A DNA stretch of 64,000 bases, taken from NCBI GenBank assembly GCA_002409145.1, contig DHUL01000037.1, positions 49,325 to 113,324 on the forward strand, in the 5' to 3' direction. The translations under genes were made by a program, and so were the position numbers. The DNA is from Bacteroidales bacterium UBA5235. GTDB lineage: Bacteria; Bacteroidota; Bacteroidia; Bacteroidales; VadinHA17. Positions 1,103 through 18,159 of this stretch are shown piece by piece (position 1 is the stretch's first letter; the number at the start of each line of letters is the position of its first letter). The notes below the pieces were generated by a model, which was not told the DNA's origin, did no database searches, and saw only the letters and a list, made by a program, of their open reading frames with translations.

Positions 1103-1513
1103 TTACAGTCCTGTACTCTCCTTAAGGAATTTGCGTGCTGCTTTGCGTTTGTCGGCGTCCATGAGTTTTACGTGCAGGCGGATGGTGCGGCCGTCTTTCA
1201 TGATTATGCGTATAAATCGCTTGTCCTCAGTAATCTCTGCGATCTGCTCAATAGGGAGATGTTTTTTAAAGATTTTTGTGTTCCATCTGATTGTCAGTAT
1301 TCCGTGATCAGCAGTGAGCCGGTTGATAATGGCGCCGAAAATCAGTGTAAAGAAGACTACGGCAGCCAGAATAAAAACCACCACAAGAATCCAGAAGACA
1401 GCTCTTTTAGGACTGTGCATGAAAAGTTGGAGGCCCACAGCGAAGAGCAGCAGTCCTCCCAGGAAGCGGAAGAGATATTCCTGAGCCTTGTCGCGAATCA
1501 CCAGTTGATTCAT
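1103..1513 (-). CDS. small membrane protein, bacterial-PH-like (paralog 2 of 569..979)
   Basis: Same 136-aa length and gap-free alignment to the neighbour, roughly 40 percent identical by eye. Shared blocks: NRLT..G.LTIRW.TK, LPI..I.EI, F.RI.MK.GR.IRL, RKFLKE.TG. Confidence 0.55.
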   Translation of the reverse strand: MNQLVIRDKAQEYLFRFLGGLLLFAVGLQLFMHSPKRAVFWILVVVFILAAVVFFTLIFGAIINRLTADHGILTIRWNTKIFKKHLPIEQIAEITEDKRFIRIIMKDGRTIRLHVKLMDADKRKAARKFLKESTGL

Positions 1514-1950: not shown

Positions 1951-2421
1951 TCAGGCTGGCTGGCCCTGTTGGCTGTACACCAGCAGAGTTATGACACCGA
2001 CGATTATGAAAGCAGCGCATCTGATGGCAGTGGCCCTGTAGAAGCGGTGCCTTTCGCTGGAGTTTCTGATAAGGGCAAGAAGCAGCATCAGTGCTGTGAC
2101 CACCAGGCCACAGTTGATGAGGATTCTTGTCATAGGATAATTGTTCAGGGCAAATAATAATCCCAAAGTCAGTTGAGACAGTCCAAGCCCGGTTCCTGCT
2201 GCAACAACGATTCTCCAGGGTCCCAGACCCTTGTAGGATTCGGAATTGAATATTTTCCGAATCGGAATTTCGTTAAAGAGGGCGAATCCAAGGTAGAGGT
2301 AGACGGTACCCAGCACCACCAGGAAGACAGATGTGATTAGCGAATGGAAAGGCACGTTGAGCAATGCCATCAGGATGCCGATTATGGCTCCGGCGATGAG
2401 GATTAGTTCGGGCTTCTTCAT
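1951..2421 (-). CDS. polytopic membrane protein, unknown function
   Basis: 156-aa ORF with ATG start and about 5 hydrophobic segments. No motif recognised. Confidence 0.55.
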   Translation of the reverse strand: MKKPELILIAGAIIGILMALLNVPFHSLITSVFLVVLGTVYLYLGFALFNEIPIRKIFNSESYKGLGPWRIVVAAGTGLGLSQLTLGLLFALNNYPMTRILINCGLVVTALMLLLALIRNSSERHRFYRATAIRCAAFIIVGVITLLVYSQQGQPA

Positions 2422-2575
2422 ACTTTTGGATTAGAGACATTTGACTTTCGATGATAATTTGGTAATCTGGTACTAAGTTATTATATTATTGTTATCAAAT
2501 CAGTTACAGCCAATATTCTTCTGCGATGAAATTAATAAACCTGCCAACACTTTGTACAGACTCTTTAGTAAGGTT

Positions 2576-3058
2576 TTAAACAAACATATTATATAATGAG
2601 GCCAGGAAATTATCCATGGCGTGAAGAATGAAAACCAGGATTATTGCATCTTCCTTTCTGTATCTTCCAAGGTAATATGCTAAGGCATAAATTATTCCAA
2701 CCAAAAACGTAATTAATACATAAAGAAAACTGTATGTATGATTCAATGCAAACGCCAGAGAAGAAGCTAATACTGCAATCCAGATGTTCTTCCATGGTCT
2801 TTTAACGATCTTACAGATAATTTCAATTATTAATGATTGAAACAAAAGCGTTTCTATGATTGGAACAGCTATAACCGCAATTAACAGATCAATAACGATA
2901 TTATCTGTTTTCCAGTAACCTGCCGACTCAGGTTCCGGTAAAAATGTGGTTATTGCAGCCAGCAATAAAGTAGGAACCAGGAATATTAAAATATATTTAA
3001 TAGTCGGAACCTTAATCAAATAACTGACTGAAAAGATATGTATTGAACCTTTATGCAA
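2576..3058 (-). CDS. CPBP/Abi family intramembrane protease-like protein (bacteriocin self-immunity type)
   Basis: 160 aa, polytopic. Motif 2 is FALNH and motif 3 is LHAMDN. Motif 1 is degenerate (IETLLFQ instead of EExxxR). The track start is TTG, so the start is uncertain. Confidence 0.6.
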   Translation of the reverse strand: MHKGSIHIFSVSYLIKVPTIKYILIFLVPTLLLAAITTFLPEPESAGYWKTDNIVIDLLIAVIAVPIIETLLFQSLIIEIICKIVKRPWKNIWIAVLASSLAFALNHTYSFLYVLITFLVGIIYALAYYLGRYRKEDAIILVFILHAMDNFLASLYNMFV

Positions 3059-3111
3059 CTATTATGAATTTAGCATTACATAGTCCTTATGACCGTTATT
3101 AAGCAGAATTG

Positions 3112-3486
3112 TCATCCTTTTTTGAAGAAAATGCTAACAACCATGAGATTTATTCCGATGGCTATCACTGTGCCAATCAGAGTACCCAGTATATCATGGA
3201 AATCGAAAGTAGCCCATGGAAGAAATATCTGAATAAACTCATAGGCTGCTAAACCCAAACCAACCGACAAGATTCCCCAAATCCTGGGTTTGATTGTTCT
3301 GTAGTCTTTGAACCAAATGAATAACGAAGAAATAGTCAATACTCCACCAGTATTAGCTGAAGTATCATGAATGAAACCCATAGTAGCATTGTGATGAGGA
3401 AGAAACCTCATCAGTGTAACTCCCAGGGAGGTCAGGATAAAGAAAGCAATAAACAGGAATAAATCAGTGTTCCTTGGATCAGTCAT
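3112..3486 (-). CDS. VanZ-like membrane protein
   Basis: Track ORF 3112..3519 begins at TTG. I prefer the in-frame ATG at 3486 (MTDPRNTD...). Four hydrophobic segments. YEFIQIFLPWATFDFHDILGTLIG resembles the VanZ E..Q.F.P....D..D....G pattern. Confidence 0.5.
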   Translation of the reverse strand: MTDPRNTDLFLFIAFFILTSLGVTLMRFLPHHNATMGFIHDTSANTGGVLTISSLFIWFKDYRTIKPRIWGILSVGLGLAAYEFIQIFLPWATFDFHDILGTLIGTVIAIGINLMVVSIFFKKG

Positions 3487-3549
3487 TATTATGTAAGTGT
3501 TTAATCTTAAGTAGCACAAACTTTCAAGTTTTCCGGAAAATGAAAAGAA

Positions 3550-3738
3550 TCATTCTTTCTTTCTCTTGCGGGACAGGGAAATCCATCCTAAAACAACCAC
3601 TGATCCGGTAGCATAAAGCAGCACAGATGTTGCCTTAGAGAGGTTAGCCATGTCACTTAATAACCAATAGTAAGTCATCATGATGACATACAACAGGGAA
3701 ATCAGGGCAAGTGCAATTTTAAGAACTGTTCTGTTCAT
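3550..3738 (-). CDS. 2-TM mini-protein with a polybasic tail
   Basis: Track ORF begins at TTG (3753). The in-frame ATG at 3738 gives 62 aa, MNRTVLKIALALISLLYV...LSRKRKKE. Confidence 0.45.
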   Translation of the reverse strand: MNRTVLKIALALISLLYVIMMTYYWLLSDMANLSKATSVLLYATGSVVVLGWISLSRKRKKE

Positions 3739-4178
3739 GTTGTATAAATTCAAGTCGATTTATGCAGGAGAAAATCGATCATCTACAGATTCAGTATGTT
3801 AAAGATAAGAATTTATCACGTTTGAGAGCAAAGATTGCCGCTGATCGGACTTCTTCTGTCACATTACTGGTAAGCTATAATTGGTAGAGGTTTTCCTGCT
3901 GTGTTCCTGCTCCCTGGTTTTATCCAGATTGGTTTTATAATAGGCTTCACAGAAGATAGCTTTAAAACTCCGGGTGTTCTATTTATAGTTGGCGAATAAC
4001 TGGATCAGAATCAAAACAACCACTCCTCAGTGGAACGGTCAGATCTCTTTTAGTAATTTTTTTTGAATAGATGTTTTCATGAAAGGAGCAATAAACCAAG
4101 TGAAGAGTGAATATACACTATGCCAATAGGAAGATAGACATTAGGCACTATTCGATGGCAAGTTATTCTGTACTAAAC

Positions 4179-4370
4179 CTATTCCCTATTTCTCCTTTTT
4201 ACCCTTCTTCTATACTCAATAAGTAATGAATTTATCAATCCTCCAACCAAAAGAATAATAAACAAAATATTATCAGTTTTAGTCAGGTCCTCAATAAAGA
4301 TCAACTTGTAAAGAATATAGACTGCCAAAGCAACTAAGATGACAAATACAATTGTAGTAACAGTTCTCAT
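4179..4370 (-). CDS. 2-TM mini-protein with a polybasic tail
   Basis: 63 aa with ATG start. Two hydrophobic helices, tail EYRRRVKRRNRE. Lies immediately downstream of the two GG-leader peptide genes. Confidence 0.5.
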   Translation of the reverse strand: MRTVTTIVFVILVALAVYILYKLIFIEDLTKTDNILFIILLVGGLINSLLIEYRRRVKRRNRE

Positions 4371-4483
4371 TTCAGTAAAATAACTGAAGAAAGCCTACTT
4401 TGTTTTTACCACAGAATTTGGGTTTTAACGAAATAACCCTAATGTTCCTAAATGACAAAAACACTTAATAAACCCTCTTTTAG

Positions 4484-4672
4484 TTAATCTAGTGTGGCTG
4501 CCTTGTAAATTATACAGCCTATTCCTGCAGCCTTTACTATGACATAACCCACCCCAGATAATGCCAAGAGGGGAGAGATAATATTAGCAACACCTACTGC
4601 AACACAAAAGCCATCCCAAAAGTTACCTCCTTGAGTTTCACTTAACTCATCATATGTTAGAATCCTTATCAT
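4484..4672 (-). CDS. double-glycine-leader peptide precursor B (bacteriocin-like)
   Basis: 62 aa. Leader MIRILTYDELSETQGG (DELSxxxGG type). The 46-aa core NFWDGFCVAVGV...GIGCIIYKAATLD has 2 Cys. ATG start. Sits 11 nt after precursor A and downstream of the C39 ABC exporter. Confidence 0.7.
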   Translation of the reverse strand: MIRILTYDELSETQGGNFWDGFCVAVGVANIISPLLALSGVGYVIVKAAGIGCIIYKAATLD

Positions 4673-4683
4673 AATTCTTAGTA

Positions 4684-4890
4684 TTATTCTACGACAATTC
4701 CTTCACTTTCCCAATATTTTTTCGCAGCAAGGGCTGCTGCACAACCAACTGCAGGTGCAGCTGCTAAAGGTGCCAAAACAAACCCAAAGCAAGCAATCAT
4801 AGCAGCTGAACCGCATAGTAATCCAGTTAGAGTGCTGAATTTTAATCCACCATTTACTGTTTCCATTTGACACGTCTGAAGTTCTTTCAT
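4684..4890 (-). CDS. double-glycine-leader peptide precursor A (bacteriocin-like)
   Basis: 68 aa. Leader MKELQTCQMETVNGG has hydrophobic residues at -4 (V), -7 (M), -12 (L) and -15 (M) relative to the GG. The 53-aa hydrophobic core has 3 Cys. ATG start. Confidence 0.7.
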   Translation of the reverse strand: MKELQTCQMETVNGGLKFSTLTGLLCGSAAMIACFGFVLAPLAAAPAVGCAAALAAKKYWESEGIVVE

Positions 4891-5080
4891 AGCGAGACAA
4901 TTTTAACTTTCACCTACTCTATTATTGGCTTTTCGGTTTCTGCCTGCAGACGAAAAATGTTAAATTCCATCTGCATTATCAAAGTAAAAACAGTGCAGTC
5001 CAATAATACAGGATTGGCGTATTTTTCTTCCTGCCGAACCTGGTTTTTGTTTGCTGATAATACACCTGGCGGTTGAAAAT

Positions 5081-7276
5081 CTAAGCCTTAATCTGCTTTG
5101 CCAGATCAAATTCCTCCCAAAACCTTTTGTAAAGGTTCTCCTTCATCAACAGCTCGCTATGGGTTCCTGAAGCTGTTATGGTCCCTCCCTCAAGAAGGTA
5201 AATCCTGTCACATATTTTCCTGATAATATTAATTCTGTGAGTAACGAGCAGTATTCCAACTGAAGCCCTGATCCTCATCAGAATTTTCAATATGAGAGAT
5301 TCTGTATCCCGGTCCATTCCTGAGGTGCCTTCGTCAATGATCAAAATATCAGGATCATTGAACAATGTTCGCATGAATGCAATTACTTGTTTTTGACCCC
5401 CTGACAGCTTGACACCTTCTTCTCCGGTTAATGTGGCAAATCCAAGTGGCAAACTATTAACGAATTGTTCAAGTCCGAATTCAGCGGTCAACCGTACAAG
5501 TCTGGCAATTTTGGTCTCATCAGGATCAGGAATAATGTTTTCTAGGACTGTCCCATTGAAAATATGAACATCCTGAGGGATAAGACCAATCGACTTGCGC
5601 CATTTAGCCATAGGTATTTCCTGATGTGCAGAATGATCATTCACTGTTATAACACCAGATTCAGGGTCATAAAAGCGCATCAGGATATTGACCAGAGTGC
5701 TTTTCCCCGAACCGGATTCGCCAACCAATGCGACAATCCTGCCCTTCCTGATCTCAAAACCTATATCCTTTAACAGCAGCTTTTGTCCAGGGAATCGAAA
5801 TGAAATACCCTTTAATCCTATACCGACAATATCAGGAAAATCTTCCTTTAGATCTGCAGGGATTTCCTCCGCCTTCAACTGGGTAAATTCAAACATCCTT
5901 TCAAGCGCCACCTTCGCCTCACTCAAAGGAATGGAAACGAGGGCCAGGTTTAAAACTGAAGGCAGCAGGGTCGAACTAAGTGTAATGATAGCCATCAGTT
6001 CGCCCTGGGTCATCCTCGTCCCCATAACTTCAAGCGATGTGAATAACAGTAATCCCATCAGATATAAGGTCCCCGCCAGGTTGGTAACTATGCCCAGCTT
6101 AATTTTAATCTTGCCAAGAGAGAATGCCCTCTCCTGAAACAAACTGAAAATTGATTTATTCCTGCCCTCATAAAAACTCTGCCACCCCATGCTCTTAATC
6201 TCCGTAATTCCCTTTAAAGTGCTGATGAAGTTACTTTCGTTGAGCGCATAACCCGCCATCAGATCCTGCTGGGATTTTATCACTGGTTTATTCCATTTGT
6301 GAACCAGGAGAAAAAACAATGGGACTGCTGTAGTCGAGATTGTTCCGGCGATCGTAGAGTAAGACCAAATCATTGCCAACGTTATCAAAACAATCAGACA
6401 ATCTATTACATAAACACTGACCACTTCGGAAATAACCCGCTGAATCCTGAGAGTATCATTAAGACGGGCAACCATGTCCCCCGTTTTACGTGAATCGAAG
6501 AATGGCTTTGGCAAACCAAGCAGCGATCTGTAGAATCCATCAACGACCCTGATATTGTATGTCTTGCCCTGGGATAATAACGTCGTCTGACGGATAGCGG
6601 TAAGTACCACCCTCACAGCAAGAAGCATGAACACTAAAACGATTGAAACGATCAGCATCCGATTATTGCCGGATGGCAAGATATCATCCAGTAATTTCTG
6701 TGTAAAGACTGCCATTACAACTCCAAGCCCGGAAACGAGAATGCCAACAAAAAAACTAGCAGTCAACAATTCAATATCGGGTTTGACAGTTTCAGCTATC
6801 CACTGACGCTTCCTTCTTATCGTTGTTTCATGATAGGTAAAATTCTTCCCTGGAGCAACTGCAAGGCATTTATGGCTCAACCAGATTTTTTCAACTTCAT
6901 CCCGGGTTCTTAAAACAAGTCCCCGGGCCGGATCCCAGATTATGAATCGGTTATCTATATAACCATACGATACAACATAATGCTCGTATCCCTTTCCCGG
7001 GGTTACGTGAAGGATCAGAATCCCGGTATACTCAGTAATATTTTTTATAGTAGCCTCATAGCCTGTAGCTACCATACCTGATGACTTGGCAGCCTGATAC
7101 AAACCCAGCATGGTTGTCCCTGACTGGCTTGTGCCGCTCAATAGGCGTATCTGATCAATAGTTGAATCCCCTCCAGAATACCTTATGATTGATGCAAGGC
7201 ATGCTGCTCCACAGTCTGTAGAGTCGTGCTGCAACAATGAGACCTCCTTAATCCTTTTTAGATTAATCGCTGTCAT
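5081..7276 (-). CDS. peptidase-C39-containing ABC transporter (PCAT; GG-leader peptide processing and export)
   Basis: 731 aa. C39 catalytic Cys in HDSTDCGAACLASII, with His/Asp context EHYVVSYG...IWDPARG. Six-helix TMD. Walker A GESGSGKST, signature LSGGQKQ, Walker B ILIIDEGTS. Confidence 0.92.
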   Translation of the reverse strand: MTAINLKRIKEVSLLQHDSTDCGAACLASIIRYSGGDSTIDQIRLLSGTSQSGTTMLGLYQAAKSSGMVATGYEATIKNITEYTGILILHVTPGKGYEHYVVSYGYIDNRFIIWDPARGLVLRTRDEVEKIWLSHKCLAVAPGKNFTYHETTIRRKRQWIAETVKPDIELLTASFFVGILVSGLGVVMAVFTQKLLDDILPSGNNRMLIVSIVLVFMLLAVRVVLTAIRQTTLLSQGKTYNIRVVDGFYRSLLGLPKPFFDSRKTGDMVARLNDTLRIQRVISEVVSVYVIDCLIVLITLAMIWSYSTIAGTISTTAVPLFFLLVHKWNKPVIKSQQDLMAGYALNESNFISTLKGITEIKSMGWQSFYEGRNKSIFSLFQERAFSLGKIKIKLGIVTNLAGTLYLMGLLLFTSLEVMGTRMTQGELMAIITLSSTLLPSVLNLALVSIPLSEAKVALERMFEFTQLKAEEIPADLKEDFPDIVGIGLKGISFRFPGQKLLLKDIGFEIRKGRIVALVGESGSGKSTLVNILMRFYDPESGVITVNDHSAHQEIPMAKWRKSIGLIPQDVHIFNGTVLENIIPDPDETKIARLVRLTAEFGLEQFVNSLPLGFATLTGEEGVKLSGGQKQVIAFMRTLFNDPDILIIDEGTSGMDRDTESLILKILMRIRASVGILLVTHRINIIRKICDRIYLLEGGTITASGTHSELLMKENLYKRFWEEFDLAKQIKA

Positions 7277-7784
7277 ACAAATACTTCATTATTGTTTCCG
7301 GCTTAACCGAGCCTCTGAATATCTTAACAAGCCGAAGACTGTCGTTGTATATAAAATTGGCCGGAATGATATTAGCTCCAAACAATTCACTCAATTTTAA
7401 ATCAGGATCATGTATTATATGTAGATGCGATGTATCTATGATTTTGAAATCCTTAAGAAAAGATCTGATCTCAGATTTTCCAGCGTAACTTACCAGGATG
7501 ATTCTGGAATTGCAGCTTTGGGAGTCATTGGATATAAGAGAGGAAATTTCATACCTGCAATGATCACACTCCGGGTGAAAGAAAGTGATCAGTAAGGGTC
7601 CCGATGTAAGCCAGGAAGTATTGAATTCTTCCCCATTGATATCAGTCAATACTAAATCCGGCAGAATCCTGATCCTTTCCAATGCGCCTTCCACCCGTGA
7701 CTTGCGTGTGAGAATAGCTACAATCAACAATACAATAATGATTATCGGGATCAACAGTAAGAATTTCGCAATTCTCCGTTTCAT
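7263..7784 (-). CDS. membrane-anchored thioredoxin-fold thiol-disulfide oxidoreductase (TlpA/ResA-like)
   Basis: 173 aa. N-terminal anchor FLLLIPIIIIVLLIVAIL. CxxC in FFHPECDHCRYE. Its 3' end overlaps the PCAT start by 14 nt. Confidence 0.75.
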   Translation of the reverse strand: MKRRIAKFLLLIPIIIIVLLIVAILTRKSRVEGALERIRILPDLVLTDINGEEFNTSWLTSGPLLITFFHPECDHCRYEISSLISNDSQSCNSRIILVSYAGKSEIRSFLKDFKIIDTSHLHIIHDPDLKLSELFGANIIPANFIYNDSLRLVKIFRGSVKPETIMKYLYDSD

Positions 7785-8437
7785 GGCATTGCATCAATTG
7801 TTAAAAACATAATAACCGCGATCCATACTGCGACAGCGGGAACATAGGTCGATAAAACAACCTTATCCGCCGCCCCCTTCCTTATTGATCCGATTCTGGA
7901 TAGGCCGAATGCAAGCAGCAATACATAAAGTGCCTGAAAAATGTTAACGCTCTGCAGGGGATAGATCCAATAGGATGCGACTTCTGACCGGCTGAAAAGA
8001 TTAATCAATGACAGCGGATAAAAGAAACTAATATCTTCAAGTGTGTAATTACCAGCAAAAAAAATAAACCATAACAGTTTCATCACCGAAGCCAAAATGA
8101 ACACTATTTCGCACAAGACGACTACTTTAAAGATCTTACCTAGAGTAATCTCCTTGTGCAGATCGCTGAAGAATGCACCTATAAATAAAACCACACTCAA
8201 GGCAGAAAATTTGAGAAGTAGCAATATAGGTGTAATTGCATAGGTCACCCAGGAATATGATTTCATCCTGTAAAAGAGCTCCATCGATCGTTCGTATGTC
8301 AGCTGCTCGCTGTAGGTATTGAAAAAGACGATTTCATCAATCAGAAGTGTTTGAGAAGCGATAAGGAAAAGTATGTCTATCATTACTATCCCGGAAAACA
8401 GCTTCCACCCTCTTAAAGACAAGGCTCTGGCAATCAT
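7781..8437 (-). CDS. polytopic membrane protein of unknown function, coupled to the redoxin gene
   Basis: 218 aa with ATG start and about 5-6 hydrophobic segments. ATGA 4-nt overlap with the downstream redoxin gene. No motif recognised. Confidence 0.6.
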   Translation of the reverse strand: MIARALSLRGWKLFSGIVMIDILFLIASQTLLIDEIVFFNTYSEQLTYERSMELFYRMKSYSWVTYAITPILLLLKFSALSVVLFIGAFFSDLHKEITLGKIFKVVVLCEIVFILASVMKLLWFIFFAGNYTLEDISFFYPLSLINLFSRSEVASYWIYPLQSVNIFQALYVLLLAFGLSRIGSIRKGAADKVVLSTYVPAVAVWIAVIMFLTIDAMP

Positions 8438-8512
8438 ACCTTCATTATTAAGAATCTATCTTCAAACCAAGGATATGCACTTCAGTAATGCGCATTTATA
8501 GTCTTAACTTAA

Positions 8513-8758
8513 TTAATGTCCCTCCATAACCTTCTCTACTTTTATTACTATCCTTCTGGAATCACCATAGTAGTAGGATTCCCGAACATTGGAATACCTG
8601 ATATCAACACCCATCCCTTTCATCTCCTGAAGGGTTTCAAACAGCATTGAACGACTTAGATTCATCTTGTACGCAAACTCCTCTGGCGGACCGGTTGCCT
8701 TCATGGCAATAAGAGAGTCCATCCGTTGCAAACGTGCAATGTATTTTGACAACGACAT
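8513..8758 (-). CDS. small HTH-domain protein (putative locus regulator)
   Basis: Track ORF starts at TTG (8788). The in-frame ATG at 8758 gives 81 aa, MSLSKYIARLQRMDSLIAMKATGPPEEFAYKMNLSRSMLFETLQEMKGMG. This is the wHTH-like pattern of small Bacteroidota HTH proteins found next to peptide clusters. Confidence 0.5.
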   Translation of the reverse strand: MSLSKYIARLQRMDSLIAMKATGPPEEFAYKMNLSRSMLFETLQEMKGMGVDIRYSNVRESYYYGDSRRIVIKVEKVMEGH

Positions 8759-8785
8759 GATTACTATTTTAGAAATGCAGCACTT

Positions 8786-8793
8786 CAAATTTA
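8786..8793 (-). promoter_or_regulatory. candidate Bacteroidota -7 promoter box TAAATTTG
   Basis: The rc of caaattta is an exact match to TAnnTTTG. It ends 28 nt upstream of the HTH ATG at 8758. Confidence 0.3.
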
Positions 8794-8996
8794 AGAAGGG
8801 TTTTTAAGAATGTCAACACTGCTTGCAAAATATTTTGATATATGGTTCTTCGAGATGACTTTTTATAACAATCATGGTTCCTGCCGACTGAGGTCATAAT
8901 CAAGATCCTGACTTGAGAATATCTTAGATTTACTTGACATGAGCAGTCAAATGGCGTAAATTTATATGGCATTACTGGGGAGAAACCTAAAAATCA

Positions 8997-9443
8997 ATGC
9001 CTATGAAAAAGACTGCCGTTCTCTGCTCACTGCTCCTGATTATGCTCGTGGCATGCAAGCAGGAGCCACTAAATCCTGTCATTGGCGCATGGGACCTGTT
9101 CTATGCCAAACAGGTGGTAAATGACTCGGTCGTAGCCATATACCCGGACACCTACCAGGGAAGCCAGGTAAAAATGTGGTGCAATAACTACTGGATGTTC
9201 GTCGGGCAATATAAACAGGATACCATCATATCAGAAAGCTATGGCGGCGGATCCTATACGCTCGAGGGAATCGTCTATAAAGAAACCATCGAGTACCACG
9301 TCACCGGTGATTTCATCGGGAAAACCTTAAGAATGAGAATCGTTGTCGCCAATGATACCCTGATACAGGTGTGGCCGGCCGACGAAACAGGTGAAGTGGA
9401 TAAAAGCAATTACTGGTCCGAAAAATACGTCAGGGTGAAATAG
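8997..9443 (+). CDS. lipoprotein, unknown function
   Basis: 148 aa. Signal peptide plus lipobox LLIMLVAC. The second ATG at 9003 (MKKTAV...) may be the true start. Confidence 0.6.
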   Translation: MPMKKTAVLCSLLLIMLVACKQEPLNPVIGAWDLFYAKQVVNDSVVAIYPDTYQGSQVKMWCNNYWMFVGQYKQDTIISESYGGGSYTLEGIVYKETIEYHVTGDFIGKTLRMRIVVANDTLIQVWPADETGEVDKSNYWSEKYVRVK

Positions 9444-9527
9444 GGGTGTCAGTGACCCGTCAGGCGGGACAATGCTGGACGATCTGTGATCAACGCCGTA
9501 ATTATTGTCACTTGGACTACAATTCTT

Positions 9528-9594
9528 AAAGGCCTGCGGCCTATATACATCTTTTGGCATTCTGTGCTGCAATGCTGAAAGGCCTACGGCCTAT
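9528..9594. repeat. two copies of a 17-nt hairpin motif (aaaggccTGCggcctat / aaaggccTACggcctat) exactly 50 nt apart
   Basis: Copies at 9528-9544 and 9578-9594, 16/17 identical. Each has a 5-7 bp stem (aggcc/ggcct) and a 3-nt loop. They lie between convergent genes, and copy 2 overlaps the stop codon of 9591..10118. Confidence 0.35.
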
Positions 9595-10118
9595 TTGGCC
9601 AGGAGCTTTACCAGCTTTTCATGCAACTGTACTGACCAGGTCTCTATTTCCGAATGACCCCGGTTCTCGGCTTCACGAAGTAACCCAAGCAACAGCCGCA
9701 GTTTGAATTTTGACCGCTCACCGGGCTGCGCTGCCTCCCTGCTGTCAGCCTCACCACTGAAGAATCCTTCACTAACAGTATGAACCATACCCCTTACATG
9801 AGAAGTGTATTGCATGATCACCATTCGCGACTCAGCCCCTCTATCTGTACTGAGCGACGGAATGACAGTAAAAATGGCAAAGGGCTTCTTGCCCAACACC
9901 GACTGGTTCCGCCTGACAAACTCCATCGCCTCCGGAACCCATCCTCCACCCTGCTCCTGGCACCCGGCAATCACAGCCGAAAAAACTTTTACCCCTGACA
10001 CCCCGCTCATAGGCCTGAGCGTCACCTCGGCACCCAGGCCGGTCAACACCCGGGCCACTCGCTCAGCCACACTGGCTGCCAGCCCGGACGTACCTGCATG
10101 AGTTACAAGAATCTTCAT
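9591..10118 (-). CDS. flavodoxin-fold protein (HemG/flavodoxin_5-like)
   Basis: 175 aa. MKILVTHAGTSGLAASVAERVARVL...FSAVIAGC...KPFAIFTV follows the flavodoxin-like beta-alpha pattern. ATG start. Confidence 0.55.
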   Translation of the reverse strand: MKILVTHAGTSGLAASVAERVARVLTGLGAEVTLRPMSGVSGVKVFSAVIAGCQEQGGGWVPEAMEFVRRNQSVLGKKPFAIFTVIPSLSTDRGAESRMVIMQYTSHVRGMVHTVSEGFFSGEADSREAAQPGERSKFKLRLLLGLLREAENRGHSEIETWSVQLHEKLVKLLAK

Positions 10119-10237
10119 CGCTCTGGAACAAGGTTTGGTCTCCCAAAATTAATAAAAAGTGAACAATCTTTAACCGGGGATCCCGGCCGGAACTACCCCG
10201 CTAAGCGTTTTCTTGCTATTTTTGCAAAAAGAACACA

Positions 10238-10573
10238 ATGGCTATCCCGAGCTTCTTCAAACAGAACAAACCCCGCGGCTTCAACTACAAGCCCCGGTAC
10301 TATGATCCGGTCAAGGAGGAACTGGAACAGAGACGCAAGACATGGGAGAAAGAAAAGAGAGATAGCGGGGAAAGGCAGAATAATAGTGAGCCCTCCCCCG
10401 CTGAAGCTGCGGAGGGAACCTCCCGTCAGCCCTACCGCTCAAGGATCATGCGCGGTGATATGAAAAACTACTTTAACCACAGGCAGGAGAAAGTGCAGAA
10501 ACAGACCACCATCAGACTAATTGTGATCATAATTATCCTTGCCTTCGTAGTCTATCTTTACCTCCGTTTTTAA
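10238..10573 (+). CDS. hypothetical protein with a C-terminal TM anchor
   Basis: 111 aa. Charged, low-complexity N-terminal part and C-terminal helix LIVIIIILAFVVYLYL. Sits 9 nt upstream of mutL. Confidence 0.5.
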   Translation: MAIPSFFKQNKPRGFNYKPRYYDPVKEELEQRRKTWEKEKRDSGERQNNSEPSPAEAAEGTSRQPYRSRIMRGDMKNYFNHRQEKVQKQTTIRLIVIIIILAFVVYLYLRF

Positions 10574-10582
10574 TCGCCCCGG

Positions 10583-12439
10583 ATGAGTGACATTATAAAG
10601 CTTCTGCCCGACTCCGTCGCCAACCAGATAGCGGCAGGTGAAGTCATCCAGCGTCCGGCATCAGTGGTCAAGGAGTTGACGGAGAACGCCGTTGACGCAG
10701 GGGCTACAGAAATAAGCGTGGTCATCCGCGATGCCGGCCGTACTCTCGTACAGGTGATTGACAACGGATGCGGCATGAGCGAGACTGACGCCCGCCTCTC
10801 ATTCGAGAGACACGCCACCTCAAAGATCTCATCAGCCGATGATCTTTTTATCATAACTACCAAAGGATTCCGGGGTGAGGCGCTCGCCTCAATAGCAGCC
10901 GTCTCAATGACCGAGTTGCGCACAAGACGCGAAGAAGACGAAGCAGGAACACTGGTTGAAATAAATAACTCGAGGGTCACAAGACAGGAACCATGTTCAT
11001 GCGCTGCAGGATCAGTATTCAGCGTCAGGAACCTCTTTTACAATGTCCCCGCCCGCCGAAAATTCCTGAAGTCGGACACAACCGAGTTCCGGCATATCAT
11101 CACCGAGTTCCAGCGTGTAGCCCTTGCCCACCCGGAGATAAGGTTCAACCTTACCCACAATGACCAGGAGATTTACCGCCTTCCGGCGGGAAACCATCGT
11201 CAGCGGATAGCAGGGCTGTTCGGAAAACATTACAACCAAAACCTGGTCAGTGTGGAGACCTCCACCTCCATTGTGTCAGTAAGCGGGTTTGCGGGGAAGC
11301 CCGAAAACGCCCGCCGCTCAGCCGGTGAACAGTTTTTCTTCGTGAACAACAGGTTCATCCGGCATCCCTATCTGCATCGCGCTGTGCTGGAAGCCTACCA
11401 GGGTCTCCTTCCTCCCGATACCCTCCCGGCATATTTCATATATATGATCGCTGACCCGGCAACAATAGATGTGAACATCCACCCCACCAAAACCGAGGTC
11501 AAGTTCGAGGACGAGAGGTCTGTCTGGCAGATCATGCTGGCTTCCGTCCGTGAGGCTCTGGGCCGGTTCAACGTGGTGCCGTCGCTTGACTTCGGTCCCG
11601 AGGGCGCCGTGGATATCCCGGTCATCATGGGCAACACCCCTCCGCCACCGCTGCCGCAGATAGAGGTTGACCACACCTTCAATCCGTTCGAAGGCACTGA
11701 ATACCAGAGACCCGGAATAAAATGGAAATGGGACGCTGAGCGTAATCCTCCACGCGACTGGGAGTCGCTTTTCACCATCACCACACGCGGAAAGAGTGAG
11801 AGTGAGAGTGAGATTGAGGCTGAGAGCGGAAAAAGGATATCATCAGGCCCGTCAGATGATGAAGGGCACGGAGCAGCCCAGCGCCGTTTTTTCCAGGTAA
11901 AAAACCGCTACATCATGTGCCCTGTGATCTCCGGAATAATGATGATTGACCAGAGAAGGGCCCACGAGAGAGTGCTCTACGAGAGATACCTTACCTCACT
12001 CGGTGACGGTCCGAGACCTGCACAGGTATCGCTTTTCCCTGTAGAGGCGGAACTTAATCCGGGCGATCTGGTGATCATTGAAGAGATAAGCGACCAGCTC
12101 AGGATACTCGGATTTGAGATAAAAACCGGGACGCAAGGCAGGGTCACAATCAGCGGTCATCCCGCTGACAGCCGCAATGCAAACCCCCTGGCAATGCTCG
12201 AAACTATCATCGCCGAATACAAGCACTCGATGGGAGACCCGGCTATAGGTGCACGCGAACGGATCGCCCTCTCCATGGCCAGGGCTTCAGCTATCCAGTA
12301 TGGCACCCCGCTGACTCACACAGAGATGGAGGAACTATTTGACATGCTTTTCGCCTGCGCTATGCCAAACTACTCTCCCTCAGGCAAAACGGTGATGAAC
12401 ATCATCACCCTCGAGGAGCTTGACCGGAGATTCAGCTGA
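10583..12439 (+). CDS. mutL: DNA mismatch repair protein MutL
   Basis: 618 aa. GHKL ATPase motifs VVKELTENAVDAGAT, DNGCGM and GFRGEALASI. DVNIHPTKTEV. C-terminal dimerisation region. Confidence 0.95.
   Translation: MSDIIKLLPDSVANQIAAGEVIQRPASVVKELTENAVDAGATEISVVIRDAGRTLVQVIDNGCGMSETDARLSFERHATSKISSADDLFIITTKGFRGEALASIAAVSMTELRTRREEDEAGTLVEINNSRVTRQEPCSCAAGSVFSVRNLFYNVPARRKFLKSDTTEFRHIITEFQRVALAHPEIRFNLTHNDQEIYRLPAGNHRQRIAGLFGKHYNQNLVSVETSTSIVSVSGFAGKPENARRSAGEQFFFVNNRFIRHPYLHRAVLEAYQGLLPPDTLPAYFIYMIADPATIDVNIHPTKTEVKFEDERSVWQIMLASVREALGRFNVVPSLDFGPEGAVDIPVIMGNTPPPPLPQIEVDHTFNPFEGTEYQRPGIKWKWDAERNPPRDWESLFTITTRGKSESESEIEAESGKRISSGPSDDEGHGAAQRRFFQVKNRYIMCPVISGIMMIDQRRAHERVLYERYLTSLGDGPRPAQVSLFPVEAELNPGDLVIIEEISDQLRILGFEIKTGTQGRVTISGHPADSRNANPLAMLETIIAEYKHSMGDPAIGARERIALSMARASAIQYGTPLTHTEMEELFDMLFACAMPNYSPSGKTVMNIITLEELDRRFS
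11794..11823 (+). repeat. hexanucleotide tandem repeat (GAGTGA)x3 plus two degenerate units inside the mutL linker
   Basis: Read directly as gagtga gagtga gagtga gattga ggctga. Encodes SESESEIEAE in the disordered linker. Confidence 0.8.
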
Positions 12440-12491
12440 TATTTGGTCAGAATGGCTAAATTTGCGCTTTGAAACACGTGAGAACAATAAG

Positions 12492-13226
12492 ATGAACAGA
12501 ATACTTTCAGGGACCCCTCCGGTGGTGAAAAACCTCATCATCATCAATGTGGTGATGCTCCTGCTGTATGAACTCCTCAAGCTGACAACAGGCATCAACC
12601 TGAACGGCATCCTGGGGCTCTATTTCCCAAAATCGGAATTCTTCCGTTCATGGCAGATTGTCACACACATGTTTATGCATGGCGGGTTTGTGCACCTGCT
12701 TTTCAACATGTTTGCCCTGTGGATGTTCGGGAGGATACTCGAACAGGTATGGGGGCCAAAGAGGTTCCTCCTCTATTACCTGGTGACGGGACTGGGCGCA
12801 GCCTTCTTCTTTGAACTGGTACAGTGGTACCAGTACAACAAGGTGATGGGAATCCTCTCACCTGAGCAGCTTCAGTATGTCTATGACGCCGGAAGCAATG
12901 CCGTCAGCCAGGGCAAAAACTTCACAGACCCGGATATGGGGAGGCTGAATTCAATACTTAATGTTCCCGTTGTGGGAGCATCAGGAGCTGTCTACGGAGT
13001 GCTTCTGGCCTTCGGGGTGCTCTTCCCCAACACGCAGCTGATGTTCATATTTCCTCCCATACCTGTCAAGGCGAAATATGTTGTCATAGGGTATGCAGCC
13101 ATAGAGCTCTACCTGGCTATCACAAGCCCGGGAAGCAGCATAGCCCATACGGCACACCTCGGCGGTATGCTCTTTGGCTATATCCTGATAAGATACTGGA
13201 GGAAGACCACTAAAACCCTTTACTGA
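12492..13226 (+). CDS. rhomboid family intramembrane serine protease
   Basis: The track ORF starts at 12420, inside mutL. ATG 12492 (MNRILSG...) is preferred. Motifs: HMFMHGGFVHLLFNM, catalytic GASGAVYG, AHLGG. Confidence 0.85.
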   Translation: MNRILSGTPPVVKNLIIINVVMLLLYELLKLTTGINLNGILGLYFPKSEFFRSWQIVTHMFMHGGFVHLLFNMFALWMFGRILEQVWGPKRFLLYYLVTGLGAAFFFELVQWYQYNKVMGILSPEQLQYVYDAGSNAVSQGKNFTDPDMGRLNSILNVPVVGASGAVYGVLLAFGVLFPNTQLMFIFPPIPVKAKYVVIGYAAIELYLAITSPGSSIAHTAHLGGMLFGYILIRYWRKTTKTLY

Positions 13227-14140
13227 TGAGCATCTGGGACGAGATAAAGGGTTCATTCAAACATGGCACAGCCCTGACAAGGCTGATGTACATCAACGGC
13301 GCCGTATTCCTGTTTATAAAGATTATTGAAGTAATAGGGGTACTTACATCCAGCCCCGGCCTGGCTACGGCAGTAATATCGAACCTGGCTGTCCCGGCCT
13401 CCACCACCGCCCTTGCCCTTAAGCCATGGACACCCGTCACCTACATGTTCACTCACCAGGGATTTATCCACCTGCTCTTTAACCTGTTGTGGCTATGGTG
13501 GTTCGGGAAAATTTTCCTGGCATATCTCGATCAGCGGAAGCTGGTGGCACTCTATATCATGGGAGGTCTCGCCGGAGCACTTCTTTATGTAATTGTCTTC
13601 AATATCTTCCCTGCCTTCGCGTCAGCGGTGAACGTCTCAATTGCACTGGGTGCATCCGCCTCGGTGATGGCATTGGTTATAGGCACAGCCGTCTACCTGC
13701 CCGATCTCGAGCTGCACCTCCTCTTTTTCGGGAGGGTGAAGCTGAAATACCTGGCACTGGTAACCTTCCTGATAACCTCTGTGTTTGATTTCTCGGTGAA
13801 CACCGGAGGCAAGATCGCCCATATCGGCGGTGCACTGATGGGATTAGCCTACGGACAGGGTCTGAGAAATGGCAGGGATTTTGGAATATGGTTAAACAGG
13901 ATCCTCGACTTTTTTGTTAGTCTGTTCAAACCGGGGAAAAGGCTCAGGGTGAAATACAAGAAAACCGGAACCGCCTTCAAAGCACAAAAGACAAAGACTG
14001 ACCACGAATACAACTCAGCAAAAGCCGAAAGGCAGAAGGAGATAGACCATATACTCGACAAGATTTCGAAAGGAGGTTATGACAGTCTCACGAGGGAAGA
14101 AAAAGCAATCCTCTTCAGCGAGAGCCAGAAAAAAGGATAG
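13226..14140 (+). CDS. rhomboid family intramembrane serine protease with a lysine-rich cytosolic tail
   Basis: 304 aa. Motifs YMFTHQGFIHLLFNL, GASASVMA and AHIGGAL. The start overlaps the previous stop. About 90-aa charged C-terminal extension. Confidence 0.85.
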   Translation: MSIWDEIKGSFKHGTALTRLMYINGAVFLFIKIIEVIGVLTSSPGLATAVISNLAVPASTTALALKPWTPVTYMFTHQGFIHLLFNLLWLWWFGKIFLAYLDQRKLVALYIMGGLAGALLYVIVFNIFPAFASAVNVSIALGASASVMALVIGTAVYLPDLELHLLFFGRVKLKYLALVTFLITSVFDFSVNTGGKIAHIGGALMGLAYGQGLRNGRDFGIWLNRILDFFVSLFKPGKRLRVKYKKTGTAFKAQKTKTDHEYNSAKAERQKEIDHILDKISKGGYDSLTREEKAILFSESQKKG

Positions 14141-15266
14141 CGGTATCAGGCGCTTCACGCGAAACATACTGCTGGTGGTCAACCTTTTCCTGGTTATCCT
14201 CCTGGCGTTGGCTTATCTTTCAATCTATATCAATCCTGCCACGATAGCATTCCCGGCCCTTTTCGGGCTTGCATACCCCTATATCGCTGCTGTGAACGTT
14301 GCCATGGTCATTGTCTGGATCCTCTTCAGGAAATGGTATGCACTGCTGTCGGCCGTTGCACTGGTGGCAGGTGTCGGTTATATCCACAACTTCATCAGGT
14401 TCACCAATCATGGGAAGGAAGAGCATCACCACCTGAAGCTGATGAGTTATAACGTACGACTGTTCAACATTTATGAGTCAGCCGAGAAGAACACCCACAC
14501 CAAGATGCTTCAGCTTCTGAAGAAGGAGGATCCGGGTATTATCTGCCTCCAGGAATATTATGTAAGGGGTGACCCTGCTGCCGGTGAGCGGAAGTTGAGA
14601 GAGGGTCTCGGGGGAAAGAGATATACCCATTTCAAACTCATCCGCAGCGGATCAGCGAGCAGGTACGGGATTGCTACCATCTCACGGTACCCTATTATCT
14701 ACCGGGGTGATGTGGTACATCCGGGGTCATCATCACTTACCATCTTCAGCGATATCGTGGTCGAAACTGACACTTTCAGGGTCTATAACAATCACCTGCA
14801 GTCGTTCCGCCTGCGTCGCATGGAGGGTAACCTGTTCAGCGAGATTGCCGGGGAGGAGAAGGGGCGCTCCATGGATAACATCTCTGGTATCTACCGCAGC
14901 CTGATGCAGGGTTTTGCCAGCCGTGCGCTGCAGGTCGACCGTGTCAGGAGACACATGGAGTCATCGCCTTACCCGGTGATTGTGGCCGGGGATTTCAATG
15001 ACACACCTGTTTCATACACATACCGCGTTATGCGCCGGGGTCTGAATGATGCCTTTGTGGAGGCCGGGTACGGGGCAGGATTCACCTACCGTGGCAAGTA
15101 CCCGCCGAACAGGATAGACTATATTCTCTACAGCGAAGGAATTGAATGCTCTGATTTTGATATCGTCAAGGTCAGGTATTCAGATCACTACCCGGTCATT
15201 GCCTATTTCAGGCGTGCTGACCGGACATTGGTTTCAAAAAACCAGCAATCCCGCCGGAATCAATAG
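14079..15266 (+). CDS. endonuclease/exonuclease/phosphatase (EEP) family membrane protein
   Basis: 395 aa. N-terminal TM segments, then SYNVRLFN, CLQE, AGDFNDTP and SDHYPV. The ATG at 14079 overlaps the previous gene by 62 nt and the start is not verified. Confidence 0.8.
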   Translation: MTVSRGKKKQSSSARARKKDSGIRRFTRNILLVVNLFLVILLALAYLSIYINPATIAFPALFGLAYPYIAAVNVAMVIVWILFRKWYALLSAVALVAGVGYIHNFIRFTNHGKEEHHHLKLMSYNVRLFNIYESAEKNTHTKMLQLLKKEDPGIICLQEYYVRGDPAAGERKLREGLGGKRYTHFKLIRSGSASRYGIATISRYPIIYRGDVVHPGSSSLTIFSDIVVETDTFRVYNNHLQSFRLRRMEGNLFSEIAGEEKGRSMDNISGIYRSLMQGFASRALQVDRVRRHMESSPYPVIVAGDFNDTPVSYTYRVMRRGLNDAFVEAGYGAGFTYRGKYPPNRIDYILYSEGIECSDFDIVKVRYSDHYPVIAYFRRADRTLVSKNQQSRRNQ

Positions 15267-15273
15267 AGGTCAA

Positions 15274-17222: not shown

Positions 17223-17424
17223 AGTGTTAATGATAAGATGCTTTATTGACATAAGGTGCACAAGACATAAAAGTAGTAAAATCACCTCAACAGATTACCG
17301 GGTATGATGAGTAAGATATAATTTGGGGATGAGAGAGTCTGTACTACATCCATTACAGAATTTTCAGCCGGATGAAGGAGTAGTAAAACAGGAGGAAATC
17401 TGTTTCAATTTCCTCCTGTCTGAA

Positions 17425-17817
17425 TCAGTAATTTACCATAAAACAAAAACCGTCTTTCGATTCCTTCTGCGAGAGGTATCCATTCTTCAGGATCCAGCGG
17501 CATCTGAAGGCGTCATAATCATAAATTGCATTGAAAAAACTAACATATTCCGTCAATGAGTTAAGATGATCAGGAAATATGAAAGCATAATCGCACCTTT
17601 CATCAGAATCAAATAAACAGGTAATTGAAGTCTGTTCACAATCAAATCTTATTTCTACAGATATCTGTCTTTCTTCCTTCTCATAAAAGTCCATGAAACA
17701 TATTGGGTATTGATTAAACCTTTCCCAGATTTGTCGACCAGATAATCTAAGTAATGAACTTGCATGTGCAACCAGACCGGGGAACATTTTCAGATTAGAA
17801 AGATTTTCAGGTAGCAT
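17425..17817 (-). CDS. hypothetical acidic, Cys-rich cytoplasmic protein
   Basis: 130 aa with ATG start. No signal peptide or TM segment, no recognisable motif. Located in a lower-GC patch. Confidence 0.45.
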   Translation of the reverse strand: MLPENLSNLKMFPGLVAHASSLLRLSGRQIWERFNQYPICFMDFYEKEERQISVEIRFDCEQTSITCLFDSDERCDYAFIFPDHLNSLTEYVSFFNAIYDYDAFRCRWILKNGYLSQKESKDGFCFMVNY

Positions 17818-18159
17818 GTCAGTCCGTGTTAGTTCCTGTAGTCCCAGATACAGGTGTATTATATAGGGGAAGCGTGGGACAATAGTATTCCTTTCGGGAC
17901 AGCCGGTACTTCCGTGTTTTAATTAACTGGTCCGGGCTCAGCTCATGTTATGTTATTTCCCGGTTGCACGAACTAACAACCAGGAAATGGAATGAACAGC
18001 CTTTATAACCGTTAACTGAATGCGGAATTTCACCTGCCGGTTATCCGGTAAAGGTTATTAACTAACGCTCCCGTTTGACAAATAACAGGTTAAATGTAAA
18101 AAAATAATACATTAAGTCAGCCATTTATTACCTTTAGTCGTTCAAAATAATCTGCTTAC

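Follow-up and report, generated by a model that had tools for sequence, protein, structure and literature searches.

A candidate two-peptide bacteriocin locus with a bacteroidetocin-type export module in an uncultured Bacteroidales bacterium

The window analyzed here is a stretch of 64,000 nucleotides (nt) from the Bacteroidales bacterium UBA5235 (contig DHUL01000037.1, positions 49,325 to 113,324). Between its positions 2430 and 8996 lies a compact group of genes that is likely to be a chromosomal class II bacteriocin locus, in which an export module homologous to that of the bacteroidetocins would handle a different kind of cargo, namely a two-peptide toxin with its immunity. To our knowledge, bacteroidetocins are the only class II peptide toxins characterized in Bacteroidales. 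Below, we demonstrate that the machinery is homologous, how the peptides are built, in which pattern their genes are linked, and how the locus has behaved in evolution. All ten open reading frames (ORFs) run on the minus strand and encode, in this order, a small putative helix-turn-helix (HTH) protein, a polytopic transmembrane (TM) protein, a thioredoxin-fold oxidoreductase (redoxin), a peptidase-containing ABC transporter (PCAT), two precursors with Gly-Gly (GG) leaders termed pep1 and pep2, two mini-proteins with two TM segments (2-TM), a VanZ-like protein and a CPBP protein. The ORF list thereby agrees in gene order and strand with the original prediction, which had been made from the letters alone. 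Its family calls stand for the PCAT, the redoxin and the CPBP protein, all firmly matched in profile scans, while only weak matches back the HTH and VanZ labels. Comparison with orthologues and gene calls suggests that three start codons are most likely to be corrected, to 8758 for the HTH protein (81 residues), 3486 for the VanZ-like protein (124 residues) and 3738 for the second mini-protein (62 residues).

Export machinery

As a reference, the precursors of bacteroidetocins A and B (Bd-A and Bd-B) were reconstructed from the supplement of Coyne et al. 2019 (PMC6671954) and used to fetch a bacteroidetocin A locus, termed L091, from human-gut metagenomes (fetched loci bear L numbers throughout). 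The gene order of L091 is a 220-residue TM protein, the peptide, a 171-residue redoxin, and a 732-residue PCAT, and the three machinery proteins of the window nearly match these sizes with 218, 173, and 731 residues, respectively. The PCAT returns strong Pfam matches with Peptidase_C39 (1e-24), ABC_membrane (2e-28) and ABC_tran (2.5e-30). Its C39 catalytic set is intact (Q16 and C22 within QHDSTDC, H99 within HYVV, D115 within WDP), and the Walker A, signature, Walker B and H-loop motifs of the ABC domain are present. It aligns over its full length with the bacteroidetocin A PCAT (30.5% identity over 728 residues, E 1e-107) and is 73-74% identical to its orthologues in the related loci L015, L101 and L102. 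The redoxin possesses a single N-terminal TM segment and a CDHC motif at residue 73, matches the AhpC-TSA (1.3e-7) and ResA-like (2e-7) profiles, and shares 23% identity (E 9e-9) with the 171-residue redoxin of L091, in which the motif reads CDFC.

The 218-residue TM protein did not return any Pfam or NCBIfam family in profile scans. It is nonetheless a member of a large family, since a profile search of 1.84 billion proteins reports 926 cluster representatives at E<=1e-3. A hidden Markov model (HMM) built from 136 of these representatives and the window protein gives the L091 TM protein 84.4 bits (E 1e-25), while every other ORF of the window and of L091 scores at most 7 bits. BLASTP aligns the two TM proteins co-linearly (22% identity over 141 residues, E 6e-6), and hhalign, run with a shallow profile, reports only a marginal hit (E 0.001, 22% probability), the relationship emerging clearly with the 136-representative model. 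An AlphaFold2 model computed from a 25-sequence alignment has a predicted local distance difference test (pLDDT) score of 59.7, too poor for a fold search. The TM-protein gene overlaps the redoxin gene by 4 nt, which suggests translational coupling, and the redoxin gene overlaps the PCAT gene by 14 nt; together, these overlapping ends suggest a single TM-redoxin-PCAT operon.

As judged by these profile and pairwise comparisons, all three machinery proteins are homologous to bacteroidetocin production genes. With all four defining gene classes present, the locus belongs, at the level of its predicted machinery, to the bacteroidetocin-type production system, and the resemblance proposed in the original prediction is thereby substantiated. 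In B. thetaiotaomicron CL15, toxin activity is weaker once the gene for the TM protein, for the redoxin or for the peptide has been deleted (PMC6671954). No HlyD/MFP-type adaptor gene was found among the ten genes or their immediate flanks, as already pointed out in the prediction, which had counted this as a departure from bacteroidetocin loci. However, no HlyD-type adaptor is found in L091 either, and since the four-gene bacteroidetocin region has been reported to yield toxin in E. coli (PMC6671954), the absence does not set the two systems apart.

Peptide cargo

A leader heuristic requiring GG and hydrophobic residues at positions -4, -7 and -12 selects exactly two ORFs in the 64 kb, pep1 and pep2. 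Both precursors have canonical GG leaders of 15 and 16 residues, with hydrophobic residues at -4/-7/-12/-15. The mature peptides have a net charge of 0 and a grand average of hydropathy (GRAVY) of +1.14 for pep1 and +1.28 for pep2, in line with the hydrophobic, net-neutral and non-cationic cargo expected beforehand. Cysteines 11, 19 and 35 of pep1 are invariant in the orthologue alignment, and every relative of pep2 shares its cysteines 7 and 37. In each peptide, a cysteine of the N-terminal half and one of the C-terminal half are located on opposite sides of a central proline, and the same layout recurs in the unrelated peptide of L015 (Cys 3 and 46) and in many peptides of L103. Pep1 and pep2 thus probably form disulfide-stapled helical hairpins, which would account for the presence of a dedicated redoxin. 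Small-xxx-small motifs, such as GLLCG and AAGIG, are also present.

BLASTP comparison with Bd-A and Bd-B reports similarity only in the leader and in a few residues at the mature start (best E 6e-4 over 15 residues), whereas Bd-A and Bd-B, compared with each other for scale, give E 2e-22. On this evidence, pep1 and pep2 are not members of the bacteroidetocin peptide family. A pep1 profile retrieves 25 related clusters, none of them informatively named (all hypothetical or unnamed), and one of these carries a precomputed Pfam Bacteriocin_IIc match that is unrelated to bacteroidetocin. The pep2 relatives amount to nine clusters only in 5.8 billion proteins, all at least 71% identical.

A 65-residue Cys-rich ORF overlaps pep1 in another frame (4703-4900, minus strand), and we do not consider it a gene, as a stop codon interrupts it after 9 codons in L101. 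Its start is a conserved (A/T)TG located 10 nt upstream of the pep1 ATG, and this upstream start codon could be relevant to translation control.

A peptide pair linked to a small membrane protein

In six out of six independent loci (the window, L101/L013, L102, L108, L106/L107, and L103), a pep2-type gene lies closely downstream of a pep1-type gene, with a small 2-TM gene coming next. The peptide genes are separated by 11 nt in the window and by 19 nt in L101; the 2-TM gene encodes 50-63 residues in the window, L101, L102, L108, L107 and L103. Peptide identity to the window is 71-73% in L101 and L102, drops to 47% and 41% in L106/L107, and reaches 51% (E 5e-16) and 27% (E 4e-5) in L103, which stems from an organism of 37% GC. 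The minimal loci L102 and L108 contain the triplet alone, with a single 2-TM gene per pair, pointing to one small membrane protein per peptide pair. The constancy of the triplet in six loci suggests a class IIb-like toxin that consists of two peptides and comes with an immunity protein of its own.

Two peptides and two 2-TM mini-proteins in the same window would also fit a pair of independent one-peptide bacteriocins that share a pump, each with its own immunity protein (of 63 and 62 residues), and act without synergy. However, only one 2-TM gene follows the pair in L102 and L108, and the second mini-protein of the window has no homologue in any other fetched locus, those carrying the pair included, and is separated from the pair by a gene remnant and a terminator-like hairpin. 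Sequence similarity between pep1 and pep2 is almost nil, a single GG peptide accompanies the same machinery in L015, and some of the several GG peptides of L103 are apparently unpaired; against this, the pep1 and pep2 types are adjacent in all six loci down to 27-51% identity. We therefore regard two independent bacteriocins as an unlikely explanation, and retain the two-peptide toxin.

The L103 contig, from a metagenome, deserves a separate description. Its region 1989-16186 encodes at least 10 GG-leader peptides that share the leader MKQLEFxKMEELQGG and include several adjacent pairs, each followed by a 2-TM mini-protein, together with three copies of the TM-protein family, three redoxins, an extra ABC ATPase and one PCAT.

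Candidate immunity genes

The 63-residue mini-protein diverges along with the peptides, being 53-64% identical to its counterparts where the peptides are ~71% identical, and showing no detectable similarity in loci whose peptides are 41-47% identical. In contrast, the CPBP protein is 75% identical to the CPBP protein beside the divergent pep1/pep2 pair of L107, and is thus more conserved than the peptides themselves (41-47%). Co-divergence of the 2-TM protein and steadiness of the CPBP protein are the pattern expected of a specific immunity protein and of a generic protective factor, respectively. Moreover, an intact homologue of the 63-residue protein (52% identical) is found in L012, where the peptides and the exporter are gone, and the survival of intact 2-TM genes beyond the producer genes supports the immunity assignment. 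We infer from position and divergence that the 63-residue protein is the cognate immunity protein. A C-terminal CPBP remnant is located beside an insertion sequence (IS) fragment in L012. The window CPBP protein itself displays the motifs FALNH and HAMDN.

The second mini-protein and VanZ-like genes sit beyond the remnant of a 48-residue gene and the hairpin at 4017-4041. Like the mini-protein, the VanZ-like protein has no homologue in the other fetched loci. The second mini-protein is possibly an extra or orphan immunity gene, and we assign both genes, with low confidence, to an added or orphan protection unit. Self-protection genes had been described as unusually numerous. In pneumococcal blp loci, however, CAAX/Abi proteases and short membrane proteins are treated as immunity genes and are more numerous than the bacteriocins (PMC4860687, which cites Kjos 2010 for the Abi/CAAX immunity class), so that four candidate immunity genes are ordinary by that standard.

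Conserved leader of the cargo genes

An alignment of seven loci reveals ~130 nt conserved from the PCAT stop codon to the peptide start, even where the cargo differs. This leader comprises, in order, a CCAATCC...ATTGG palindrome, a TTG...TtAnTTTG box, a hairpin, a second hairpin with its tail corresponding to the orphan Rfam cis-regulatory motif DUF805b, and an invariant TGTCTCGCTATGAAA around the start codon. The box resembles the Bacteroidota promoter consensus; matches to sigma-70-type promoters were discarded, because Bacteroidota promoters differ. The first hairpin, TGCAGA/TCTGCA, shows compensatory changes at three pairs. The RF02914 model of DUF805b has its match 21 nt ahead of the pep1 start codon, at 4911-4946 of the minus strand, with 40.4 bits (gathering score 35.6) and E 1e-8. 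It also precedes the first GG peptide in L102 (7719-7753), L101 (7723-7757) and L015 (4212-4246, minus strand), the last sharing the element despite an unrelated cargo, and is not found in L103 or in the bacteroidetocin A locus. A search of the available literature returned no account of the biology of this motif. Its distribution suggests a link to bacteriocin cargo genes in this clade, where it may act on transcript stability, translation or transcription. Nucleotide homology to L015 breaks off shortly after the start of the peptide gene, so that the conserved leader may mark the upstream limit of the recombination that exchanges cargo.

Ancestry and turnover of the locus

The locus stands out by its base composition, as had been noticed for about 2430-8990. 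G+C is 0.391 in 2430-8996 as compared with 0.503 in the remaining window, and this interval is the minimum among all 6.6-kb windows of the 64 kb (minimum at 2401; median 0.499). The sliding-window profile falls from ~0.46-0.58 to 0.32-0.44 between about 2250 and 9000, and G+C at the third codon position (GC3) is 0.22-0.49 across the ten genes as compared with 0.55-0.64 in genes on both sides, the cargo genes being the lowest (0.22-0.31). The absence of an integrase, a transposase, a tRNA and clear edge repeats, also announced in the original prediction, is confirmed: the ORF list of the locus contains no integrase or transposase, no tRNA is located within 20 kb, and repeats at the edges occur only at chance level.

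With MutL (10583-12439) as an anchor, the same site was fetched from related uncultured Bacteroidales bins, some of them labelled Rikenellaceae. The exact PCAT protein is present on 16 metagenome contigs, nine of which, from the same species and different samples, were fetched and are 99.7-100% identical to the window through the locus. The core, comprising the HTH, TM protein, redoxin and PCAT genes, is located upstream of flavodoxin and mutL in L015, L013/L101, L014 and L102 (MutL is 82-84% identical in the L015 and L013 species; the L014 sequence ends within the PCAT). In L015 (MutL 82%), the regulator is 79%, the TM protein 75%, the redoxin 52% and the PCAT 74% identical, and locus G+C is 0.30-0.45 as compared with 0.5-0.6 in its flanks; a low-GC core also occupies this site in L013, L101 and L102. 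Nucleotide identity of the core (4485-8816) to relatives is ~69%, against 73-76% for the flanks. On the distal side, nucleotide homology ceases over 2450-4484, or up to 4882 in L015, whose cargo consists of one different GG peptide and different small membrane proteins. The frameshifts of L013, which affect the PCAT, the redoxin and other genes, were considered as pseudogenization and rejected, because a flanking gene is frameshifted as well and L101 has the same layout intact; they are probably assembly errors.

Other relatives have decayed loci. In L012 (MutL 89%), the peptides, exporter, redoxin and TM protein are gone, and the region 5600-9000 keeps a truncated regulator gene, 2-TM genes of 65 and 70 residues, a split CPBP-like gene, and a C-terminal CPBP remnant that abuts a DDE-transposase fragment. 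L018 keeps the regulator and small 2-TM genes, and its exporter is absent. These remnants point to loss instead of original absence. At the same site, L018 also encodes a 222-residue lipoprotein-like ORF (6430-7098, minus strand) with no Pfam family, the Cys-rich hydrophobic C-terminus of which (CATGCSFATAGVGTVLCGWACWCMLC) recalls GG-peptide cargo.

The sharp G+C and GC3 drop with its clean edges, deepest in the cargo genes, is what a recent horizontal acquisition of the region as an island from an AT-rich donor would leave behind, but the core is syntenic beside flavodoxin and mutL, and low in GC too, in species whose MutL is 82-84% identical, and its ~69% identity against 73-76% for the flanks is as expected for vertical descent with somewhat faster evolution. 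The IS fragment of the decayed L012 locus would likewise fit mobility, although no integrase, tRNA or flanking repeat accompanies the window locus and the same-species contigs from different samples are nearly invariant through it. In L108, the whole module from HTH to immunity lies in a different chromosomal neighborhood, with FAD (flavin adenine dinucleotide) oxidases upstream, so that some movement of the whole unit has occurred; elsewhere, exchange is apparent at the cargo end only. A recently acquired island is thus decidedly unlikely, and the earlier view of an island of unclear origin is not upheld: the conservation in synteny and composition that it had named as speaking against itself is largely found in the related species. 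Instead, synteny indicates that the ancestor of this Bacteroidales clade already had the locus in its fixed position near mutL, with a cargo/immunity end that appears to have been repeatedly replaced or decayed. As far as these comparisons reach, the prevailing picture is one of an old locus whose producer core is conserved while its cargo and immunity genes turn over rapidly.

Regulator, distal gene and neighboring regions

The small regulator is 82-91% identical across eight related loci, a conservation exceeding that of MutL, and its orthologues all begin with MSLxKYIARLQRMD. It is kept in L018 although the exporter has been lost there. Its HTH label is weak, based on the sequence pattern and on an NCBIfam match to the BirA repressor (winged-helix) domain (E 0.028). 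A single-sequence AlphaFold2 model displays an alpha-alpha-beta-beta layout (pLDDT 64.5); Foldseek with this model returned no PDB match at E<=0.001, and a sequence search of the PDB with the protein returned noise only. At the distal edge, the gene of a 156-residue 4-TM protein adjoins the locus in L015, L101 and L102, with an interspecies identity of just 49-54%, and is absent from the fetched flank of the exporter-less L012 and L018; it is possibly associated with the locus. The coordinates of all these features are collected in Table 1.

Table 1. Features of the locus and of its distal edge, in transcription order
Feature	Position	Strand	Basis or remark
Small putative winged-helix regulator, 81 residues (ORF open up to 8788)	8513..8758	-	Weak family match and orthologue conservation
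218-residue, ~5-TM protein, bacteroidetocin 'TM protein' family	7781..8437	-	Profile HMM and BLASTP
Membrane-anchored thioredoxin-fold CxxC (CDHC) oxidoreductase, 173 residues	7263..7784	-	AhpC-TSA, ResA-like
PCAT, 731 residues	5081..7276	-	Pfam C39, ABC_membrane and ABC_tran
Cargo leader: promoter-like box, covarying hairpin, DUF805b element	4891..5030	-	
pep1, GG-leader precursor, mature part 53 residues	4684..4890	-	Leader MKELQTCQMETVNGG; 3 conserved Cys
pep2, GG-leader precursor, mature part 46 residues	4484..4672	-	Leader MIRILTYDELSETQGG; 2 conserved Cys; gene starts 11 nt after pep1 gene
2-TM basic mini-protein, 63 residues, candidate cognate immunity	4179..4370	-	Position after the peptide pair
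Remnant of a 48-residue gene	3935..4064	-	73.7% nucleotide identity to L101 10063-10194 (48-residue ORF)
Strongest terminator-like hairpin	4017-4041	-	10-bp stem followed by a T-run
Second 2-TM basic mini-protein, 62 residues (ORF open to 3753)	3550..3738	-	Two hydrophobic segments, pI 10
124-residue 3-4-TM protein, weakly VanZ-like	3112..3486	-	Pfam VanZ E 0.0075, 17.3 bits against a cut-off of 30.1
CPBP/Abi (Rce1-like) intramembrane protease homologue, 160 residues	2576..3058	-	Pfam Rce1-like 2.3e-12, 47.5 bits, above threshold
156-residue 4-TM protein, distal edge	1951..2421	-	Native composition, GC3 0.61 like the flanks

Several observations concern the surroundings of the locus. On its right-hand side, a nucleotidyltransferase/HepT toxin-antitoxin pair (L102 2768-3388) replaces the lipoprotein gene found at 8997-9443 of the window, so that genes turn over at this junction as well. 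In the closest species (L010, MutL 93%), the 101-kb contig ends ~300 nt past the right-hand boundary, as would fit an assembly break due to strain variation here. On the far side, the window contains tandem paralogous genes (569-979 and 1103-1513, minus strand) encoding 136-residue proteins with two N-terminal TM segments and a weak EbsA-like match; relatives retain them in the same place, with 41-47% identity across paralogues between species. A second low-GC patch (17250-19120, 0.36-0.40) encodes a 130-residue protein for which no family was detected (17425-17817, minus strand) and a 319-residue fused nucleotidyltransferase-HEPN protein (18160-19119, plus strand; HEPN 4e-16), and looks like a toxin-antitoxin or defense-type insertion. 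Lastly, a Daejeonella sp. metagenome-assembled genome (Sphingobacteriales; L075 3900-9750) contains a different GG-peptide system just upstream of mutL, a position that may be coincidental. It encodes two Cys-rich 57-residue precursors, a 534-residue multi-TM protein, the Cys-containing C-terminal part of which may be redox-active, a 784-residue PCAT and, directly after it, a 435-residue HlyD-like ORF, the multi-TM, PCAT and HlyD-like labels being assigned by eye.

Proposed mechanism and its weighing

If the locus is a two-peptide bacteriocin system, the small winged-helix protein would control its expression, and the overlapping TM-protein, redoxin and PCAT genes would form a single export operon. 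A separate cargo transcript would start at the conserved promoter-like box, carry the structured leader including the DUF805b element, and encode pep1, pep2 and the 63-residue 2-TM protein. The C39 domain of the PCAT would cleave both precursors after Gly-Gly and the transporter would export them across the inner membrane, with the TM protein assisting. In the periplasm, the anchored CDHC redoxin would introduce disulfides between the conserved cysteines, stapling the helical hairpins. Once released, the two hydrophobic, neutral peptides would jointly attack the membranes of related bacteria in the manner of class IIb toxins. Self-protection would be ensured by the 63-residue protein as the cognate immunity factor, while the CPBP/Abi homologue, the second mini-protein and the VanZ-like protein may confer generic or orphan protection.

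It is very improbable that the exported peptides are instead non-toxic, serving as signals or in another membrane- or surface-active role with the small membrane proteins as unrelated passengers: pheromones are indeed exported through GG leaders and PCATs in ComC/BlpC systems, and neutral, extremely hydrophobic peptides differ from the cationic bacteroidetocins, but no histidine kinase or response regulator is located nearby, 46-53 residues with stapling cysteines are large for pheromones, the 2-TM and CPBP genes co-vary with the peptides and outlast the producer genes as orphans, as immunity genes do, and antagonism loci typically change their cargo behind a conserved exporter (PMC4860687).

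The two-peptide toxin reading has its own difficulties, which weigh against it together. We infer function throughout, for the locus as well as for its relatives, and the co-occurrence of pep1 and pep2 could reflect simple linkage instead of joint action. No characterized bacteriocin is matched, the Pfam Bacteriocin_IIc matches being sub-threshold (E 0.005-0.03) with similarity at the level of the leader only. Known class IIb peptides are described as cationic and come from Gram-positive bacteria, whereas pep1 and pep2 are neutral, Cys-containing and encoded by a Gram-negative organism; as for the GxxxG helix-helix motifs of that class, several small-xxx-small motifs are present. The conserved cysteines of pep1 are odd in number (three), without an obvious pairing scheme, and no adaptor or outer-membrane component is encoded nearby by which such hydrophobic peptides would cross the outer membrane of the producer or of the target. 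Among the accessory features, the HTH and VanZ assignments are weak, motif 1 of the CPBP protein is degenerate (IETLLFQ for EExxxR, with the second Glu and the Arg replaced), and the terminator-like hairpin is one of 7 matches where 5.4 are expected by chance.

A wider and more tentative proposal, which we consider possible while stopping short of favoring it, is that the locus represents an undescribed class of Bacteroidota antimicrobials, made of disulfide-stapled, neutral and hydrophobic two-peptide toxins that would combine the bacteroidetocin trio with cognate immunity and a hypervariable region at a fixed site, DUF805b controlling whichever cargo is present. The locus itself indicates that one three-gene export module serves a quite different class of cargo, accompanied here by immunity-like genes, and the module appears to take interchangeable cargo behind a conserved leader. 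Among its parts is a membrane protein family of ~220 residues that Pfam does not list, although it exceeds 900 cluster representatives. Such a module offers a handle for mining Bacteroidota antimicrobials missed by similarity searches seeded on bacteroidetocin peptides. The decayed loci would provide a Gram-negative parallel to the "producer versus immunity-only" dynamics of pneumococcal blp, and the orphan Rfam motif DUF805b may gain a possible biological context. As the host is uncultured, the value of the locus is in the testable hypotheses that it supplies.

Comparison with known systems

The bacteroidetocin loci (Bd-A/Bd-B, proposed class IIf; PMC6671954, PMC8546649) are from the same phylum and possess the same TM-protein, redoxin and C39-PCAT trio, with 15-16-residue GG leaders, Cys-containing cargo and no HlyD-type adaptor in the locus. 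The mature start of pep2, NFWDG, even resembles the KFWGS of Bd-A. The two systems differ in other aspects. The peptide genes follow the PCAT gene here, whereas the bacteroidetocin peptide lies between the TM and redoxin genes. The cargo consists here of two peptides of 46-53 residues with a charge of 0, a GRAVY above +1.1 and 2-3 cysteines, whereas bacteroidetocins are single 42-residue peptides, cationic and hydrophilic, with 4 cysteines (charge +6/+2 and GRAVY -0.64/-0.85 for A/B). Bacteroidetocins bind BamA via a charge interaction (PMC8546649), which is implausible for pep1 and pep2 because they are neutral. Bacteroidetocin loci are devoid of an immunity gene and their producers inhibit themselves (PMC6671954), as compared with up to four candidate immunity genes here. 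A regulator gene and a conserved RNA leader also distinguish the present locus.

The organization is reminiscent of class IIb loci (plantaricin EF/JK, blp; PMC4860687), in which one transcription unit comprises two adjacent GG-peptide genes and, behind them, a gene for a small membrane immunity protein. Small-xxx-small motifs possibly suited to helix packing, CPBP/Abi genes at the end of the locus, a conserved exporter beside a hypervariable cargo/immunity region, and exporter-less lineages that keep immunity genes are further points in common. Unlike class IIb systems, the host is Gram-negative, the peptides are neutral and contain conserved cysteines served by a dedicated redoxin, an extra TM protein is encoded, and there is no two-component quorum-sensing system. 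Pfam and NCBIfam scans of the peptides and mini-proteins report no homology to known class IIb systems. Class IIa microcins, for their part, contain disulfides and are encoded alongside a small membrane immunity protein. MccV and MccL (PMC12219008 for the class) are likewise Gram-negative, hydrophobic and Gly/Ala-rich peptides with a GG leader and export by a PCAT. No sequence similarity to them was found; their export needs a cluster-encoded membrane-fusion protein together with TolC, whereas no membrane-fusion protein is encoded in this locus, and each of them acts as a single peptide, with neither a dedicated redoxin nor a TM protein in its system. By analogy, the locus resembles class IIb/blp systems in its organization and evolutionary behavior, and class IIa microcins in its envelope setting and peptide chemistry.

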